Assembly (NCBI RefSeq): GCF_045055805.1
Contig: NZ_CP159330.1
Span: 1,551,547 to 1,615,546, forward strand
Length of the DNA: 64,000 nt
Direction: 5' to 3'
From: Christiangramia sp. LLG6405-1
Lineage (GTDB): Bacteria > Bacteroidota > Bacteroidia > Flavobacteriales > Flavobacteriaceae
Position numbers and translations under genes: made by a program. The notes beneath the pieces are model-generated. The model did no database searches and was not told where the DNA came from. It was given only the letters and a program-made list of their open reading frames with translations. Below, in pieces: positions 5,571 to 57,758 of the stretch. Position 1 is the stretch's first letter; every line of letters starts with the position of its first letter.

Positions 5571-6335
5571 TTAAAGCTTGATAGGTTGGATAAAGTTTGA
5601 AATTTTTGAGGTTCCCTCGCTATCAAGATGTTTTATAAAAGCACTACCAATAATCGCACCTTTGGCAAATTGAGTTGCTGCTTTAAAAGTCTCCTGATCC
5701 TTAATTCCGAAACCTACAATTTGAGGATTTTTTAAATCCATTTCGTGAATTCTGCGGAAGTAATCAGTAGTTTCATTTCCGAAACCTGAAGTAGATCCAG
5801 TCACACTGGCACTACTCACCATATAAATAAATCCATTGGAAATAGAATCAATAAACCTGATTCTATCTTCTGAAGTTTGAGGAGTGATAAGAAAAATATT
5901 GATCAATCCATATTTTTCGAAAAGCTCCTGATATTCTTCGTGGTAAACATCTACTGGAAGGTCTGGGATAATAAGTCCGTCGATACCAGTTTCAGCACAT
6001 TTTTTACAGAATTCCTCTACGCCATATTGAAGCATAGGATTAAAATAACCCATCATGATCAGCGGAATCTCAACTTTGGGCCTGATATGTTTGAGTTGAT
6101 CAAAAAGCTTTTGAGTGGTCATGCCATTTCGAAGGGCTTTGGTAGAACTTTCCTGGATGGTAGGTCCATCTGCTAGTGGATCACTAAAAGGGAGTCCAAT
6201 CTCGATAAAGTCAACACCGCTTTTTTCAAGATCAAAAATGATCTGTTCAGTGTCATCAATATTTGGAAAGCCTGCACTAAAATATATGGAAAGAAGTTTT
6301 TTGTCTTCTTTTAATTTCTCCTGAATTCTATTCAT
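5571..6335 (-). CDS. trpA: Tryptophan synthase alpha chain
   Basis: 254 aa with TrpA motifs (FIEIGLPFSDPLADGPTIQ). Last gene of the trp operon. Confidence 0.9.
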   Translation of the reverse strand: MNRIQEKLKEDKKLLSIYFSAGFPNIDDTEQIIFDLEKSGVDFIEIGLPFSDPLADGPTIQESSTKALRNGMTTQKLFDQLKHIRPKVEIPLIMMGYFNPMLQYGVEEFCKKCAETGIDGLIIPDLPVDVYHEEYQELFEKYGLINIFLITPQTSEDRIRFIDSISNGFIYMVSSASVTGSTSGFGNETTDYFRRIHEMDLKNPQIVGFGIKDQETFKAATQFAKGAIIGSAFIKHLDSEGTSKISNFIQPIKL

Positions 6336-6338
6336 TTT

Positions 6339-7520
6339 CTATAAATTGAAATATTCAATATATGTGTTCAAATCCTTGTCGCCTCTTCCTGATAGGTTGA
6401 CTACAACGATATCATCTTTCTTAAATTTTCGGTTTTCAAAAACTGCCAGGGCATGGGAGGTTTCTATTGCGGGAATAATCCCTTCCAGTTTAGCAAGTTC
6501 TAATCCAGCTTTCATAGCTGCTTCGTCTGTAATGCTAATAAATTCTCCTCGTTTACTAGTAAAAAGGTTGGCATGCATTGGTCCAACTCCCGGGTAATCC
6601 AGGCCAGCTGAAATACTATATGGTTCAGTGATCTGTCCGTCGCCGGTTTGCATTAGAAGCGTTTTACTACCATGGATAATTCCGGGTTTTCCCAATGCGG
6701 AGGTTGCGGCACTTTCACCGGTATCAATACCTTTTCCAGCTGCTTCCACCGCGATGATCCCAACTTTTGGATTGTCGAGATAATGGTAATAGGCTCCTGC
6801 AGCGTTACTACCACCACCAACACAAGCGATCACATAGTCAGGATCTTCTGTATTTTCCTTTTCCATTAATTGATACTTGATCTCTTCAGAAATAACACTT
6901 TGAAACCTCGCCACCATGTCTGGATAGGGGTGTGGTCCAACTACAGAACCAATGATGTAATGCGTATCTACAGGGTTATTGATCCAGTCACGAATTGCTT
7001 CGTTAGTAGCATCCTTCAAGGTGCGGCTTCCGGATTTTGCAGGAATTACTTTGGCTCCCAGCATTTTCATTCTGGCAACGTTTGGTGATTGTCTTTCAAT
7101 ATCCACCTCGCCCATATAAACAATGCATTCCATTCCCATCAAGGCGCAAACTGTTGCCGTTGCGACACCATGTTGTCCTGCGCCGGTTTCAGCAATGATC
7201 CTCTTTTTTCCAAGTCTTTGCGCCATCAAAATCTGCCCTACTGTGTTGTTGACCTTATGCGCACCAGTATGGCAAAGGTCCTCACGTTTTAAATAAACCT
7301 TGGTTCCATAATGCTCGCTAAAGCGTTTTGCATAATATAAAGGGGTAGGTCTTCCTACATATTCTCTCAATAGATCATGGAACTCTTCCTGGAATGAATC
7401 TTCCTGCATGATCTCGATATACCTTGAACGCAGTTCCTCTACGTTAGGATACAACATTTCAGGAATATAAGCTCCCCCAAAATCCCCGTAATATCCTTTT
7501 TCATCTACCTGATAGCTCAT
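6339..7520 (-). CDS. trpB: Tryptophan synthase beta chain
   Basis: 393 aa. PLP-lysine region HTGAHKVNN and GGGSNA motifs. Confidence 0.95.
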
Positions 7521-7521
7521 C

Positions 7522-8220
7522 TTATGAATTTATCTTTTGTTTGAACTCTTTTAATTCTTTCAATTTTTTTAATCCGGGTTTCAATTCGAATTTACTATTT
7601 ACATCTACAGCATAAAGAAGATCTGGTTTGCCTGCTCTATAGAAATGATTTTTCAACTCGGCGATGGCTTCCCCATGTTCGGGCCCAATGCCACCACTAA
7701 GGAAAAATGGTGTATTAGAAGGATATTCTTTTAAAATCTGCCAGTCGAATTCCTTTCCATTGCCTCCTCGTAAAACTCCTTTAGTATCAAATAAGAAATA
7801 GTCTGCAATACCCTCGAATGCCTGTATCTTCTGAAAATCAAAATGGTCACCAACACTAAAAACCTTAATCAACTCCGGAGTGCTTCCATGTTGCTGGAAA
7901 TTATTCTTCAGCTTTTGACAGAATTCTGCCGACTCCTCCCCATGCAGCTGAATTGCATCAAGCTTATGCTGCTTTGCAATCTCCAGAATCCTTGAAATTT
8001 CTTCGTTAACGAAAACTCCTGTTTTTTTGATATTAGTAGGGAGTTCAGGAAGTTTTCCTTCAAAATAGCGGGGAGATTTTTCGTAAAATATAAAACCCAT
8101 GTAAGTAGGTTTAAGATCGGCTACCTGCAACATGTTTCCGGGTTGCTGCATCCCGCAAACTTTAAGACTCAATCCAGAACTTTGTCCTGAGGCCGGGGTT
8201 GTTAAGTTTTGTTCCTGCAT
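7522..8220 (-). CDS. trpF: Phosphoribosylanthranilate isomerase
   Basis: LKVCGM near the N-terminus is the TrpF signature. The true start may lie downstream of the listed ATG. Confidence 0.8.
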
Positions 8221-8228
8221 AATGTGAC

Positions 8229-9020
8229 TTATGACTTCTTATTAATTTCGTTTATAAAATCTTTCGCTGCCTTCCCGGGATCTTCTGTTCTCATAAAATT
8301 TTCTCCAACAAGAAAACCCTGATATCCATAATCTTTAAGTTCTGCGATTACTTTTGGGTCGCTAATTCCACTTTCTGATACTTTCACGAATTCGTCTGGT
8401 ATATGCCTGGATAGATCCTTGGAGTTCTGGATGCTAACTTCAAATGTTTTGAGATTCCTGTTATTCACCCCAATCATGTCCACATTTGCTTCAATTGAAT
8501 TCTCAAGTTCCTCAATATCGTGTATTTCCAGTAAAACATCCATCCCAAGATTTCTCGCAAAAGTCGCCAGACGCTTCAATTCTTCAGTCGGTAATACCGC
8601 CGCAATAAGCAAAACTACATCCGCTCCAAAAGCTTTAGCCTCAAGAATCTGGTAGTCATCAATCATAAAATCTTTACGCAAAACCGGCATTTCTACTACA
8701 GCCCTGGCGTATAATAGATCTTCCAGGGAACCTCCAAAATATTTACCATCGGTAAGGACAGACATACCACAGACCCCGGCATCCTGATAACCACTCGCCA
8801 CATCCTGTACGTTGAGATCGTGGTTAATAACCTGCTTAGACGGTGATCTTCTTTTGTGTTCCGCGATGATACCGCTGCTTGAATTTCTTAGTTTGTCTGC
8901 CAGTGAAACCGGATTTCTTTGAAATAAGATCGAATTTTCGAGCTGTTCTACCGGGAAAATAGATTTTTTCAGGCTTACTTCCCGACGTTTATCAGCAACA
9001 ATTTTATCTAGAATATTCAT
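8229..9020 (-). CDS. trpC: Indole-3-glycerol phosphate synthase
   Basis: 263 aa. IIAEHKRRSPS and LRKDFMIDDYQI motifs are typical of TrpC. Confidence 0.9.
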   Translation of the reverse strand: MNILDKIVADKRREVSLKKSIFPVEQLENSILFQRNPVSLADKLRNSSSGIIAEHKRRSPSKQVINHDLNVQDVASGYQDAGVCGMSVLTDGKYFGGSLEDLLYARAVVEMPVLRKDFMIDDYQILEAKAFGADVVLLIAAVLPTEELKRLATFARNLGMDVLLEIHDIEELENSIEANVDMIGVNNRNLKTFEVSIQNSKDLSRHIPDEFVKVSESGISDPKVIAELKDYGYQGFLVGENFMRTEDPGKAAKDFINEINKKS

Positions 9021-9032
9021 AATCTCAGCTTA

Positions 9033-10025
9033 TTATTTACTTAGGTCCTGTAATTTCTTGAAACATTTAAATGCATTGCCAGATGCGATAGATTCCTTAG
9101 CGCGGGCGAAACCATCCTGGGCACTTAGATTTTCAACAGTTGCGATGGCCATACCTGCATTTGCACATACGACATTCTCCTGCGCCTGTGTTCCATTACC
9201 TTTCAGAATTCCGGTTAAGATTTCTGCGGAAGATTCAATCGAACCACCTCCGGCAATTTGTGATTGTTGCAATTCTGAAACTCCAAAATCCTCTGGTTTC
9301 AACATACTTTCAGAATCGTTCCGAATGCTTTTGGTCTCACAGGTTAACGAAATTTCATCGTAACCATCGAGAGCATGGAGTATTGTGTAATTCTTATCGG
9401 TATTTTGATAAAGATACGCATACATTCGAGCCAGCTCCAAACTGAAAACACCTACCAGTTGATTCTTGGGAAACGCGGGATTTACCATAGGACCAAGCAT
9501 ATTAAAGAATGTTTTTACAGCCAGACTTTTTCTTACCGGTGCAACGTTTTTCATCGCGGGGTGAAAAAGTGGAGCGTGCAAGATGCAGATATTGGCTTCT
9601 TCCAGAGTTTTCTGAAGAAATCCCTGGTCACTGCTAAACTTGATACCAAGATATTCCATGACATTGGAGCTTCCACTTACTGAAGATACACCGTAATTAC
9701 CATGCTTGGACACCTTAATTCCGGCGCCTGCTGTTACAAAGGAGGCAGTTGTCGAAATATTGAAAGTATCTTTGCCATCACCGCCGGTCCCACAAAGATC
9801 CACGGTGTTGTAATCCTTGAGATCTACCTTTACACATAGTTCAAGCAATGCATCTCTAAAACCCTCCAGTTCCTGGATGGTAATACTTCTCATCATGTAA
9901 ACCGTAAGGAATGCTGCGATCTGTGTTTCTGAATATCTCCCTTCAGAAATATTGAAAATGGCCTGTTTTGCCTCGCTGGTCGTAATAGTTTCGTGACTAA
10001 TCAGTCTGTTTAAAAGATCTTTCAT
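9033..10025 (-). CDS. trpD: Anthranilate phosphoribosyltransferase
   Basis: 330 aa. CGTGGDG glycine-rich motif. The end overlaps trpG by 4 nt. Confidence 0.9.
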   Translation of the reverse strand: MKDLLNRLISHETITTSEAKQAIFNISEGRYSETQIAAFLTVYMMRSITIQELEGFRDALLELCVKVDLKDYNTVDLCGTGGDGKDTFNISTTASFVTAGAGIKVSKHGNYGVSSVSGSSNVMEYLGIKFSSDQGFLQKTLEEANICILHAPLFHPAMKNVAPVRKSLAVKTFFNMLGPMVNPAFPKNQLVGVFSLELARMYAYLYQNTDKNYTILHALDGYDEISLTCETKSIRNDSESMLKPEDFGVSELQQSQIAGGGSIESSAEILTGILKGNGTQAQENVVCANAGMAIATVENLSAQDGFARAKESIASGNAFKCFKKLQDLSK

Positions 10026-10648
10026 GAGGTTGTTTGCTCGTTTTCCTTATTCTGAATTGATTCTGTTGAAGATTCATGTTCAACCCAGTTTTTTATCATC
10101 TTTTTACCATCTGGTGTCAATACAGATTCCGGGTGAAACTGAACTCCCCGAACATCATATTCTTTATGTCTCAAAGACATGACCTCACCTTTTATATCAT
10201 AACTGGTAGCCTGTAGCTGTGGAGGAAGTTCTTTGGCAACTACCCAACTGTGGTATCGTCCAACTTCCAGTTCTTTTTCCAGTCCTGAGTATAAATATTC
10301 ATCTTCGACGAAAACCTCAATACTGGTAGCGACGCCATGATAAACCTCTTTAAGGTTCAATAGTGTGCCTCCATAAACTTCGCCTATTGCCTGCATACCG
10401 AGACAAACCCCCAGAATACTTTTAGTAGCACCATATTTTATAATAATTTGCTTTAAAAGCCCTGCCTCATCTGGAATACCCGGACCCGGGGAAAGCAATA
10501 TTTTATCATAATCAGCCACATCCTCCAGGTCAAGCTGGTCATTTCTCTTTACGGTCACCTTACAATCCAGTTCTTCAAGATAATGAACAAGATTATATAC
10601 GAAAGAATCGTAATTGTCTATAACAAGGATCTTTTTCATCTTTTCCAT
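10022..10648 (-). CDS. trpG: Anthranilate synthase component II (glutamine amidotransferase)
   Basis: Class-I GATase motifs GVCLGMQ and VQFHPES. 208 aa. Position between trpE and trpD. Confidence 0.85.
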   Translation of the reverse strand: MEKMKKILVIDNYDSFVYNLVHYLEELDCKVTVKRNDQLDLEDVADYDKILLSPGPGIPDEAGLLKQIIIKYGATKSILGVCLGMQAIGEVYGGTLLNLKEVYHGVATSIEVFVEDEYLYSGLEKELEVGRYHSWVVAKELPPQLQATSYDIKGEVMSLRHKEYDVRGVQFHPESVLTPDGKKMIKNWVEHESSTESIQNKENEQTTS

Positions 10649-10649
10649 T

Positions 10650-12044
10650 CTAAATTTCTTCAGCTATTTCCAGAGCTTTGGTAAGTGCTCCCAGTTTATT
10701 ATATACTTCCTGTAATTCATTCTCAGGTTTTGATTCGGAAACGACTCCAGCACCTGCCTGGTAATGCAATTCGTGATTTTTACTTACAAAAGATCTAATG
10801 ATGATCGCATGATTGAAATTGCCTTCAAAATCCATAAAACCAATCGCGCCTCCATAAGCTGAACGATTCACATTCTCGAATTTTTCAATGAGTCGTAATG
10901 CCATAGGTTTTGGAGCACCGCTTAAAGTTCCGGCAGGAAAAGTGTCTGCAACGATTTGTGGTGTTGGCACATTGGCGGCGATCTTTCCGGTGACTTTGCT
11001 AACTAAGTGAATAACATGAGAAAAGAATTGAATTTCGCGATAATTCTCAACGACTACATCACTTCCATTTCGGCTTAGATCATTACGTGCCAGATCAACA
11101 AGCATCACATGTTCCGAATTTTCCTTGCGATCTGCGGCAAGTTCCTTGGCGAGCTCTGCATCTTTTTCGTCATTCCCGGTACGTTTAAAAGTTCCGGCAA
11201 TTGGATGAATTTCAGCTCGACCCTCATTTACTATTAACTGGGCTTCAGGTGAACTTCCGAAGATTTTAAAATTTCCATAGTCAAAATAGAAGAGATAGGG
11301 GGAAGGGTTTACATTCCTAAGCGCCCGGTAAACATTAAATTCATCTCCCTTAAATTTCTGAGAGAAACGTCTCGAAAGTACCAGCTGGAATACATCACCA
11401 CGCTGGCAGTGTTCCTTAGCAGCTTCTACAACATCACGATATTGATCATCATTCAGATTAGAGTATGGCTGCTGGGTTCTGGAAAAATTATAGGAAGCGA
11501 AATTCTTAACCTTCAGTAGTTGTTCGATCTCCGCCAGTTTGGATTCAGATTCATAACTATGGTCAAATATATAAGCTTCATTCTTGAAGTGGTTGATCGC
11601 GATAATGTTTTGATATACTGCATAGTAAACATCCGGAATTTGTAAATCCTTTTCTTTGCGGTTGATCTCAACGTTTTCGAAATACCGAACGGCATCATAT
11701 CCTATATAACCAAATATGCCGTTATTGATAAACTTAAAATCTGAAGCATCAGCTTTAAAGCGCTTTGAGAACTTCTGTATCGCAGCAGGGACTGAAGCAG
11801 TTTTATCGATCTTAGTCGTTTGAACTGTACCGTCTGGCAGACTTTCAGTAATAATATCATTTTCCACCTTAAAGGAGGCTATAGGATTACAGCAGATATA
11901 TGAAAAGCTATTATCACTTGCGTGATAATCACTACTTTCAAGTAAAAGACTGTTTGGATAACGGTCGCGAAGCTTCAAATAGATACTTACCGGAGTGATA
12001 GTATCTGCAAGGATCTTTTTTGAAGTTGTCTTTAATTCGAACAT
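10650..12044 (-). CDS. trpE: Anthranilate synthase component I
   Basis: 464 aa with a chorismate-binding C-terminal domain (LSGAPKPMA, GGAIGF). First gene of the trpEGDCFBA cluster. Confidence 0.9.
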   Translation of the reverse strand: MFELKTTSKKILADTITPVSIYLKLRDRYPNSLLLESSDYHASDNSFSYICCNPIASFKVENDIITESLPDGTVQTTKIDKTASVPAAIQKFSKRFKADASDFKFINNGIFGYIGYDAVRYFENVEINRKEKDLQIPDVYYAVYQNIIAINHFKNEAYIFDHSYESESKLAEIEQLLKVKNFASYNFSRTQQPYSNLNDDQYRDVVEAAKEHCQRGDVFQLVLSRRFSQKFKGDEFNVYRALRNVNPSPYLFYFDYGNFKIFGSSPEAQLIVNEGRAEIHPIAGTFKRTGNDEKDAELAKELAADRKENSEHVMLVDLARNDLSRNGSDVVVENYREIQFFSHVIHLVSKVTGKIAANVPTPQIVADTFPAGTLSGAPKPMALRLIEKFENVNRSAYGGAIGFMDFEGNFNHAIIIRSFVSKNHELHYQAGAGVVSESKPENELQEVYNKLGALTKALEIAEEI

Positions 12045-12061
12045 TGAATCTTAATTTTTTT

Positions 12062-12095
12062 GAATAAAAAAAAGGCTTGTCGTGAGACAAGCCTT
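12062..12095 (-). terminator. Intrinsic terminator / trp attenuator hairpin (10-bp perfect stem AAGGCTTGTC-TCAC-GACAAGCCTT followed by U8 on the minus strand)
   Basis: Perfect inverted repeat with an 8-nt T-tract, about 18 nt upstream of the trpE start codon. It also sits downstream of the yceI gene. Confidence 0.65.
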
Positions 12096-12125
12096 ATATA
12101 TCTATATATGAAATGGCGTATCAGC

Positions 12126-12182
12126 TCACGATTTATTGCGTAAGTTGCTCCACCACCAGTTATGTGTATTCGTTATAAACAT
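12126..12182 (-). CDS. trpL: Putative trp operon leader peptide MFITNTHNWWWSNLRNKS (3 consecutive Trp codons)
   Basis: 18-codon ATG-initiated ORF with TGG-TGG-TGG. It ends about 30 nt before the terminator hairpin that immediately precedes trpE. Confidence 0.6.
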   Translation of the reverse strand: MFITNTHNWWWSNLRNKS

Positions 12183-12262
12183 AGCTTCAAAGATAGAAAT
12201 CAATTATTTCTTATCAAACTAAATTTTAAAAAGAATCCCAAAGAATTACTTTGAGACTCAAT

Positions 12263-12832
12263 TTAGAATTTCAATTTGATGTCAAGGTCAAAATTGTCGT
12301 AGATCGTTTTGTCTCCAAGATTCTCAAAGAAACTACCTGACCCATAACGAACGTCATATTTGGTTCTATCAATAGTTACCTGTGTAGTAGCCGTGTCACC
12401 GTTCATGATAAGATCAAACGTTAATGGATGAGTTTGTTCCTTGATAGTAAGGTCTCCAACGATTCCGTATTTCCCATTACCTTTAGAAGCTGCACTGGTA
12501 ATTACAAGCTTTGCTTTAGGGTGATCACTCGTTCCAAAGAAGTCATCAGACTTTAAATGACCTTCAAGTTTTTCTTTACTGTCACCAGAAAGGTCGGTCA
12601 CTTTAATAGTACTCATATCCATTACAAACTCTCCGCCAGTGATCTTATCATCTTCCATCAATAGGTATCCGCTTTCCAGCTGGATAGTTCCTTCATGAGA
12701 TCCGGTCACTTTTTCTCCGGTCCATTTAATAGTACTTTCAGAAGTATTTACTTCTTTTTTCGAATTGGTAAATGCTACGGTAGTCAAAACTACCAGCATA
12801 ATTACTGCTGAATTAATTAATTTACTTTTCAT
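12263..12832 (-). CDS. YceI-family periplasmic polyisoprenoid-binding protein
   Basis: Signal peptide, then the YceI-like motifs TIKWTGEKVTGSHEGT... and DFFGTSDHPKAKLV. Confidence 0.8.
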   Translation of the reverse strand: MKSKLINSAVIMLVVLTTVAFTNSKKEVNTSESTIKWTGEKVTGSHEGTIQLESGYLLMEDDKITGGEFVMDMSTIKVTDLSGDSKEKLEGHLKSDDFFGTSDHPKAKLVITSAASKGNGKYGIVGDLTIKEQTHPLTFDLIMNGDTATTQVTIDRTKYDVRYGSGSFFENLGDKTIYDNFDLDIKLKF

Positions 12833-57035: not shown

Positions 57036-57068
57036 AATTTTAATCCGCAGCCCGGCTGCGTTTAATTG

Positions 57069-57465
57069 TGGAGTCGGAGGGGTTCGAACCCTCGTCCAAA
57101 CAAGCAATTCAGATGCCTTCTACACGTTTAGTTTTCACTTGATTGTCGATGTAAAGCCGGCCGAAAACCACCAACTTTACACGTATTCTCGATTAAGTTT
57201 CAGAAACTCATCAAGACCCTGAGCTTCCTATATTTACTTTATCGGTGCCTCTGTTGTGGATGCCGTAAATCAAGGCCTCCACGAGACATCTCGGCTCCCT
57301 GCCTTGCAGGGACTAAGTATAACCTACTGTAATTCGGTTACGCAGCCAAGGCGTAGTTATTCTCGCCGTTTGAAAAAGTGTGAAACATGAGATTTAAGAG
57401 CTATATCCCGGCGCTCTACGTGCTTACAACTCAATTAGACTCGCTGTCAAAACCAAGTCGACCCC
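57069..57465 (-). ncRNA. ssrA: tmRNA (transfer-messenger RNA); tag reading frame ...GENNYALAA-stop
   Basis: On the minus strand the 5' end is GGGGTCGAC... and the 3' end is ...GGACGAGGGTTCGAACCCCTCCGACTCCA (T-arm GAGGG-TTCGAAC-CCCTC). The acceptor stem carries a G3:U wobble. An internal ORF GGC GAG AAT AAC TAC GCC TTG GCT GCG TAA encodes GENNYALAA. The CCA is not encoded. Confidence 0.85.
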
Positions 57466-57758
57466 ATAAAATAATGAACATTTTCCTAATAATCTTCTGG
57501 GCGTTCCTCTCCTCCCTTCGTCCCTTCGACAAGCTCAGGGCTCAGGGCCTCGCGGCGGGCTATTCGCTTCAATCTTTTTGCTCATAATTCACAAAAAGGA
57601 TTTCCGCTGCTATCCCTAACGCAACTACTATCTATTTCAAATAATAGTACTCAGAATTTCAAAGAATAACCGATCTCTAAAAGAGATCGAGCCTGCAAAG
57701 ATACTCATTTTAATTTATATCTTTGAGACACATCAAATTCTACAAAAGCTATACCATA

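Follow-up and report, generated by a model that had tools for sequence, protein, structure and literature searches.

The window analysed here, a 64-kb stretch of DNA from Christiangramia sp. LLG6405-1, carries a complete tryptophan biosynthesis operon, trpEGDCFBA, on its minus strand, where the stop codon of yceI (12263) and the ATG of trpE (12044) enclose a spacer of 218 nt that was read directly from the sequence (Table 1). The genes upstream of this spacer encode a MarR-family protein, a nitroreductase and a YceI protein, which is the marR-nitroreductase-yceI arrangement given in an initial annotation made from the sequence alone. The spacer holds a short leader ORF with its ATG at 12182, 18 sense codons and a TGA at 12128-12126, in which TGG-TGG-TGG at 12158-12150 provides codons 9-11 (nt 25-33, with leader nucleotides numbered from the A of the AUG); this ORF had been pointed out before and was recovered identically by direct reading. 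The sequence TGGTGGTGG is expected 0.0003 times per spacer and 0.18 times in the whole window, both strands included. Its sole other copy in the window lies on the minus strand inside trpB (6811-6819 in plus-strand coordinates) and is probably a coincidence.

Table 1. Positions in the window of the leader elements and of the regulated operon.
Feature	Position	Strand	Remarks
Terminator-like hairpin after yceI	12233-12259	minus	predicted; GAGTCTCAAAG-TAATT-CTTTGGGATTC, then TTTTT
Predicted -33 element TTTG	12215-12218	minus	Bacteroidota sigma-A promoter, 19 nt upstream of the -7 box
Predicted -7 box TATCTTTG	12188-12195	minus	consensus TAnnTTTG
RF01692 match	12202-12086	minus	whole model, positions 1-131; 46.8 bits, E 2.3e-4
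Leader ORF and stop codon	12182-12126	minus	peptide MFITNTHNWWWSNLRNKS
Decoy CUUACG	12139-12144	minus	nt 39-44; untranslated RNA pairing with CGUGAG; inner helix of the 1:2 anti-antiterminator
Switch segment UCGUGAG...GAUACGCCAUU	12112-12131	minus	nt 52-71; 5' part overlaps the leader stop codon
Intrinsic terminator (attenuator)	12066-12095	minus	10-bp stem, loop UCAC, U-run
Attenuator left arm AAGGCTTGTC	12095-12086	minus	
Attenuator loop TCAC	12085-12082	minus	
Attenuator right arm GACAAGCCTT	12081-12072	minus	
Attenuator tail TTTTTT-A-TT	12071-12063	minus	U6AUU after the 10-bp stem
Operon trpEGDCFBA	5571-12044	minus	complete; regulated operon
trpE	10650-12044	minus	
trpG/pabA	10022-10648	minus	
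trpD	9033-10025	minus	
trpC	8229-9020	minus	
trpF	7522-8220	minus	
trpB	6339-7520	minus	
trpA	5571-6335	minus	

The leader stop codon is followed after 30 nt by a hairpin with an energy of -14.8 kcal/mol, and about 21 nt separate the end of this attenuator from the trpE ATG. As in classical attenuation, an intrinsic terminator thus separates the leader ORF from the first structural gene. The same 10-bp hairpin, located about 30 nt past the leader stop in the initial annotation, was returned by an independent terminator scan, but the U8 tract attributed to it has to be shortened, as two of these U residues belong to the stem and the tail itself is U6AUU. The attenuator hairpin had also been thought to terminate the marR-nitroreductase-yceI transcript. 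This double role was rejected, since yceI is followed by a terminator-like hairpin and T-run of its own (-13.5 kcal/mol), which the terminator scan places between the upstream operon and the leader promoter, and the attenuator hairpin therefore need not serve the upstream operon.

A Bacteroidota sigma-A promoter is predicted directly upstream of the leader ORF from the published Bacteroidota consensus (PMC7366714). Of 77 relatives, 76 carry a perfect TAnnTTTG upstream of the leader ATG, at a distance of 5-10 nt in 55, and 47 of the 76 relatives with a perfect -7 box also have TTTG at the N19 spacer; in the window, as in 37 of the 77 relatives, 5 nt separate the end of the -7 box from the leader AUG. 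Because the sigma-A box occupies -12 to -5 in Flavobacterium psychrophilum (PMC9723704), the predicted transcription start would fall at 12183/12182, at the AUG or 1 nt before it. With a promoter ending 5 nt before the AUG, translation of the leader ORF probably uses an RNA that is leaderless or nearly so, the start being predicted from promoter geometry alone. This would be noteworthy because only about 4-6% of the transcripts of the phylum are leaderless: the share is 5.5% in F. psychrophilum (PMC9723704), and 5' UTRs of <10 nt account for about 3.7% in B. thetaiotaomicron (PMC7366714). The initial annotation had placed a Bacteroidota-style promoter before the leader, but the motif that it took as the -7 box is actually the -33 box of the conserved promoter, which is situated 20-27 nt farther downstream. 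The promoter drawn there (TTTG at 12242-12239 and TAGTTTG at 12221-12215) was rejected, as its 8-mer TTAGTTTG misfits TAnnTTTG, its spacer measures 16-17 nt rather than 19 nt and it overlaps the yceI terminator. A scan with the sigma-70 consensus, which is irrelevant for Bacteroidota, gave 9 sites vs. 11.5 in shuffled sequences.

When the region 11800-12500 was searched against Rfam at E ≤ 10, the top match among 20 was RF01692, Bacteroid-trp, described as "Bacteroidete tryptophan peptide leader RNA". The leader is absent from the whole-window Rfam scan run at gathering thresholds, in agreement with its earlier description as unlisted, because its score of 46.8 bits falls just under the gathering score of 49 bits, which is an operational cut-off and not a biological feature. 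This gathering score is passed by 18 of 20 orthologous loci (49.4-77 bits), including the closest Christiangramia copies (64.1 and 60.9 bits), and the window leader aligns collinearly with the orthologous loci; the window copy is thus an orthologue, one that happens to miss the cut-off by 2 bits. In keeping with the family description, which places these RNAs upstream of trpE or trpB in Bacteroidetes, it adjoins trpE of trpEGDCFBA; its 18-codon ORF contains UGG three times in tandem at codons 9-11; and the UGG codons are included in a hairpin, where GGUGGUG pairs with CGCCAUU in the minimum free energy (MFE) structure. On the alignment described below, this window-derived UGG hairpin is 65.9% paired vs. 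31-50% in slid controls. The other Rfam families in the region gave only weak chance matches driven by the terminator, among them BTnc060 and STnc370 on the opposite strand. The Bacteroid-trp motif was described in silico by Weinberg et al., 2010 (Genome Biol 11:R31; PMC2864571 supplement) as a presumed Trp attenuation leader, and no diagram was given because it is "a loosely conserved hairpin". The leader is consequently a sub-threshold member of an already described family and not new in kind; the attenuator interpretation of the initial annotation is supported by this match, although its writer was unaware of the existing family. Two further RNAs are encoded elsewhere on the minus strand of the window, a tmRNA (RF00023, 121.7 bits, 57066-57465) and a Flavo-1 RNA motif (RF01705, 55.8 bits, 57549-57630) that precedes it by 84 nt.

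Conservation was assessed by scanning a genome collection with the TrpE sequence of the window, which returned 80 Flavobacteriaceae loci with 72-88% identity, the nearest relatives belonging to Christiangramia (Flavobacteriaceae). The window and 78 of these loci form an informative set of 79, from which L055 was left out for having too little upstream DNA. The initial annotation had suggested looking for a conserved short ORF with tandem Trp codons in orthologous Flavobacteriaceae, and a leader ORF with WWW was found in 79/79 informative sequences. It starts with ATG and comprises 17, 18 or 20 codons in 78 of them, while in L075 this ORF opens with TTG, and WWW lies at codons 9-11 throughout except in the 17-codon ORF of L044, where it lies at codons 8-10. 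The low expectation for TGGTGGTGG together with the retention of the ORF in all informative relatives excludes a chance origin of the leader ORF. In the extracted set, which consists of the 79 sequences other than L055 and L075 and was aligned as A1, each sequence has a terminator 23-37 nt after the leader stop, and all 790 cells (100%) of the 10 terminator pairs are paired, with compensatory changes that keep the stem paired at 4 pairs (in L030, L048, L073, L074 and L080). In six Salegentibacter and Flagellimonas genomes (L014, L015, L017, L021, L028 and L045), a small ORF with a GIY-YIG nuclease domain lies between the attenuator terminator and trpE and moves the leader to 490-590 nt upstream of trpE; in L014 it spans 2141-2437 on the plus strand and encodes 98 aa (PF01541, E 8e-18). 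This ORF is possibly a mobile insertion, which would be transcribed only upon attenuator read-through.

The segment at the leader stop codon has two alternative partners, the upstream decoy and UGG codons or the downstream terminator left arm and loop. TCGTGAG at 12131-12125 is complementary to CTCACGA at 12086-12080, a stretch that runs from the final base of the left arm through the loop into two right-arm bases; further pairing takes in the entire left arm (nt 52-71 with nt 88-103). The resulting antiterminator duplex (-15.0 kcal/mol vs. -14.8 kcal/mol for the terminator hairpin) is mutually exclusive with the terminator, as in classical attenuation. The TCGTGAG/CTCACGA pairing had been recognized in the initial annotation, but the label "weak" does not hold in evolutionary terms, as it is the core of a longer, conserved antiterminator. 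On A1, the 7 core pairs are formed in 95.5% of cells vs. 0.4-62% in slid controls, and the competing inner helix of the 1:2 hairpin is 78.5% paired with compensatory changes at 3 pairs. Leaders of 18 codons read the motif (G)UCGUGA(G) as Ser-stop and those of 20 codons read it as Val-Val-Arg or Phe-Val-Ser, yet it hardly varies; since it is retained in any frame, the constraint is on the RNA, and the same holds for the complementary UCACGAC at the apex of the terminator.

Since the core helix is almost invariant within Flavobacteriaceae, the case for covariation of the antiterminator depends on one sequence, L048, with an apparent compensatory change (UCGUAA/UUACGA) besides one G-U pair on A1, and on the 13 seed sequences of Weinberg with their flanks. 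In 12 of the 13 seeds, the segment that best complements the terminator apex begins 16-22 nt past the last UGG, although its sequence varies between seeds. For example, switch segments and their apex partners read GUCGUAAG/CUUACGAC, CUGUGAA/UUCACAG, CGUGAACA/UGUUCACG, GUCGAU/AUCGAC, GUGAGAU/AUCUCAC, UCGUGAA/UUCACGA and GUCGUGAC/GUCACGAC. By duplex energy, 10 of the 13 seeds reached p ≤ 0.05 against dinucleotide shuffles of the upstream region, and the combined values (Fisher p 7e-10, binomial p 2e-11) are only indicative, the sequences being homologous. These 13 pairings, picked by search rather than from an unbiased alignment, point to real covariation of the antiterminator in distant Bacteroidetes.

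The terminator stem AAGGCUUGUC/GACAAGCCUU (12072-12095, minus strand; columns 103-130 of A1) is almost invariant among genera with TrpE only 72-75% identical, and AAGGCUUGUC is also the 3' end of the RF01692 consensus; A1 has 27 invariant columns, many of them within this stem. Such conservation exceeds the need for base pairing and is partly accounted for by the antiterminator, and there is a small possibility that an additional factor acts on the stem. A trans-acting factor that regulates the operon instead of ribosome stalling, whether a TRAP-like protein, a T-box or a repressor on the palindrome AAGGCTTGTC-N4-5-GACAAGCCTT, would agree with this conservation across genera and with the AAGGCUU part of the stem, which the antiterminator explains only loosely, yet it is considered very unlikely. 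No T-box or other riboswitch family appeared in the Rfam scan even at E ≤ 10, and a TRAP site of the Bacillus type consists of 9-11 (G/U)AG triplets spaced by 2-3 nt, whereas the leader has only three, at nt 33, 56 and 79, about 23 nt apart. In addition, the compensatory changes maintain pairing of the stem as RNA, an operator downstream of the leader ORF would be unusual for a DNA-binding repressor, and the invariant WWW in a translatable ORF would be left unexplained.

The leader peptide may alternatively be a functional micropeptide under selection for the sequence WWWxNLRxxS, as its C-terminal half (NNLRQTS and similar) is rather conserved in many genera, while the eight N-terminal residues vary freely. 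The conserved C-terminal residues are, however, encoded by the pairing segments (AAC-UUA-CGU in the decoy and UCG-UGA in the switch core), and the 20-codon variants read GUCGUGA in another frame as Val-Val-Arg; because the conserved residues coincide with pairing segments and the RNA motif survives a change of frame, a micropeptide is regarded as even less probable than a trans-acting factor.

Folding of the leader was examined in modelled ribosome states. Without a ribosome, the MFE structure consists of a long 1:2 hairpin and the terminator (z = -4.5), and the 1:2 hairpin pairs nt 1-14 with nt 71-85, GGUGGU (nt 27-32) with CGCCAU (nt 65-70) and CUUACG (nt 39-44) with CGUGAG (nt 53-58). The extended antiterminator became the MFE structure when a nascent RNA with its 3' end at nt 103-107 was modelled with a stalled ribosome that had a Trp codon in the A site and a footprint from -15 to +14. 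In this antiterminator, UCGUGA (nt 52-57) pairs with UCACGA (nt 98-103), GAUA (nt 61-64) with UGUC (nt 94-97), GCC (nt 66-68) with GGC (nt 90-92) and UU (nt 70-71) with AA (nt 88-89), spanning the whole left arm, the loop and two right-arm bases. A ribosome modelled at the stop codon (nt 55-57) would cover the switch segment. A thermodynamic switch of the full-length leader was rejected, since the terminator is the MFE structure in every modelled state once the full right arm is present, and the switch must therefore be kinetic: in these models, the antiterminator would be complete before the right arm emerges, a kinetic antitermination that lies beyond proof by folding. Of the mutually exclusive leader folds that the initial annotation had proposed to look for, the antiterminator appeared in folds of the nascent transcript only.

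Between genera, the linker from the stop codon to the terminator is poorly alignable, which precluded column-wise scoring of the extended antiterminator and of the outer 1:2 stem, and an alignment-free occupancy with shuffled-linker controls was used instead. Occupancy averages, over the terminator left arm, loop and first 3 right-arm nt, the probability of pairing with an upstream partner in the nascent RNA, and it was computed for 40 sequences (the 13 seeds and 27 representative Flavobacteriaceae). The mean was 0.65 with the ribosome stalled at the Trp codons (window 0.82), 0.36 with no ribosome (window 0.28), 0.31 with the ribosome at the stop codon (window 0.41) and 0.37 with a shuffled linker (window 0.36). 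As read from a thermodynamic model of a kinetic process, occupancy in the stalled state exceeded both the stop-codon state and the shuffled mean in 40/40 sequences, and it exceeded the no-ribosome state in 34/40, with no predicted difference in 6/40. The stalled occupancy of the window was matched by none of 30 shuffles.

A constitutive terminator, belonging to the marR-nitroreductase-yceI operon or shared with it and accompanied by a coincidental WWW ORF, is the least likely alternative of all, although intrinsic terminators are common between operons and the hairpin is the thermodynamic optimum in all full-length folds. yceI has its own hairpin (12259-12233) with a conserved promoter between that hairpin and the leader, and TGGTGGTGG would hardly be expected in such a spacer and yet WWW occurs in every informative relative. 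Moreover, the operon would be shut off by a terminator that always acts 21 nt ahead of trpE and is followed by no further promoter.

The leader is best explained as a ribosome-mediated transcription attenuator of trpEGDCFBA, orthologous to RF01692 and working as a three-state switch, a reading to which a probability of about 0.88 is given. This is the mechanism for which the Trp leader peptide and the intrinsic terminator had been read as a signature in the initial annotation, and it is now carried by the Rfam match, the conservation of the WWW ORF and terminator, and the antiterminator. From the sequence elements observed, together with how they are conserved, covary and are predicted to fold, we infer the ribosome footprints, kinetics, transcription start and tryptophan response that follow. 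Transcription would begin from the sigma-A promoter TTTG-N19-TATCTTTG, which stops 5 nt short of the leader AUG. With ample Trp, the ribosome would pass UGG-UGG-UGG, reach the stop codon and cover the switch segment, so that the 10-bp terminator would form and transcription would stop before trpE. When charged tRNA-Trp is scarce, the ribosome would stall at codons 9-11 and hide the decoy CUUACG and the UGG codons, leaving the switch segment free to pair with the emerging terminator left arm and loop (nt 52-71 with nt 88-103); this pairing would precede synthesis of the right arm, and RNA polymerase would read into trpE. In untranslated RNA, the UGG codons would pair with CGCCAUU and CUUACG with CGUGAG; the switch segment would thereby be locked in the long 1:2 hairpin, and the terminator would form. 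Experiments testing the mechanism at this locus or in any Bacteroidota species were not found in the literature, and a literature search covering sources other than subscription journals gave no earlier predictions of Bacteroidetes attenuators beyond those of Weinberg, Rochat and Guerin. As threshold-based Rfam annotation misses the leader (46.8 vs. 49 bits), the trp operon should be annotated as attenuator-controlled.

Among the known systems, RF01692 is the closest, with the same phylum, the same position upstream of trpE, a short ORF with tandem UGG codons, a long hairpin that includes them and an identical 3' end of the model (AAGGCUUGUC). The RF01692 model stops at the terminator left arm, and the antiterminator and the promoter abutting the AUG are absent from the published description. 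In F. psychrophilum, an element was noted upstream of trpE (Rochat 2019, PMC6414381; Guerin 2021, PMC9723704), the leader is expressed, and expression of the trp operon is highest in minimal medium (Guerin 2021, PMC9723704 SI). Its leader peptide is near-identical (MNTFLNNTWWWNNLRQTS), the GUCGUGA and AAGGCUUGUC motifs are held in common and the operon is the same (trpE-pabA-trpDCFBA), whereas its -7 box lies 16 nt before the AUG and leaves a short 5' UTR, compared with 5 nt in the window. A distinct variant of attenuation in Bacteroidota, combining an mRNA that is leaderless or has a 1-nt leader with an antiterminator that nucleates by invading the terminator loop and the first right-arm nucleotides from a segment overlapping the stop codon, is conceivable at slightly less than even odds; neither feature is part of the Rfam or Weinberg description, and older comparative genomics of attenuators may already contain either. 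The explicit antiterminator model and the predicted leaderless leader would thus be modest additions, and overall novelty is low. They would give a family known until now only as a "loosely conserved hairpin" an explicit three-state structural model that names individual nucleotides, and the leaderless leader, if true, would be a neat way to couple the first ribosome tightly to RNA polymerase.

The E. coli trpL leader (RF00513 Trp_leader; Yanofsky model) follows the same logic, with a short ORF containing tandem Trp codons, an intrinsic terminator before trpE and likewise 1:2, 2:3 and 3:4 alternatives; the position of the ribosome, which selects the fold in trpL, is predicted to do so in the window leader as well. 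RF00513 was not among the 20 Rfam matches to 11800-12500 at E ≤ 10, and the two leaders have no detectable homology of sequence or structure; the window leader is analogous, not homologous, to E. coli trpL. It has three Trp codons vs. two in trpL and, unlike trpL, has no Shine-Dalgarno sequence and probably no 5' UTR. Its antiterminator would nucleate on the terminator loop and the first right-arm nucleotides in addition to the left arm, and the core of its switch overlaps the leader stop codon. Flavobacteria would use leader-peptide attenuation like that of E. coli despite lacking initiation led by a Shine-Dalgarno sequence, which is biologically little new.
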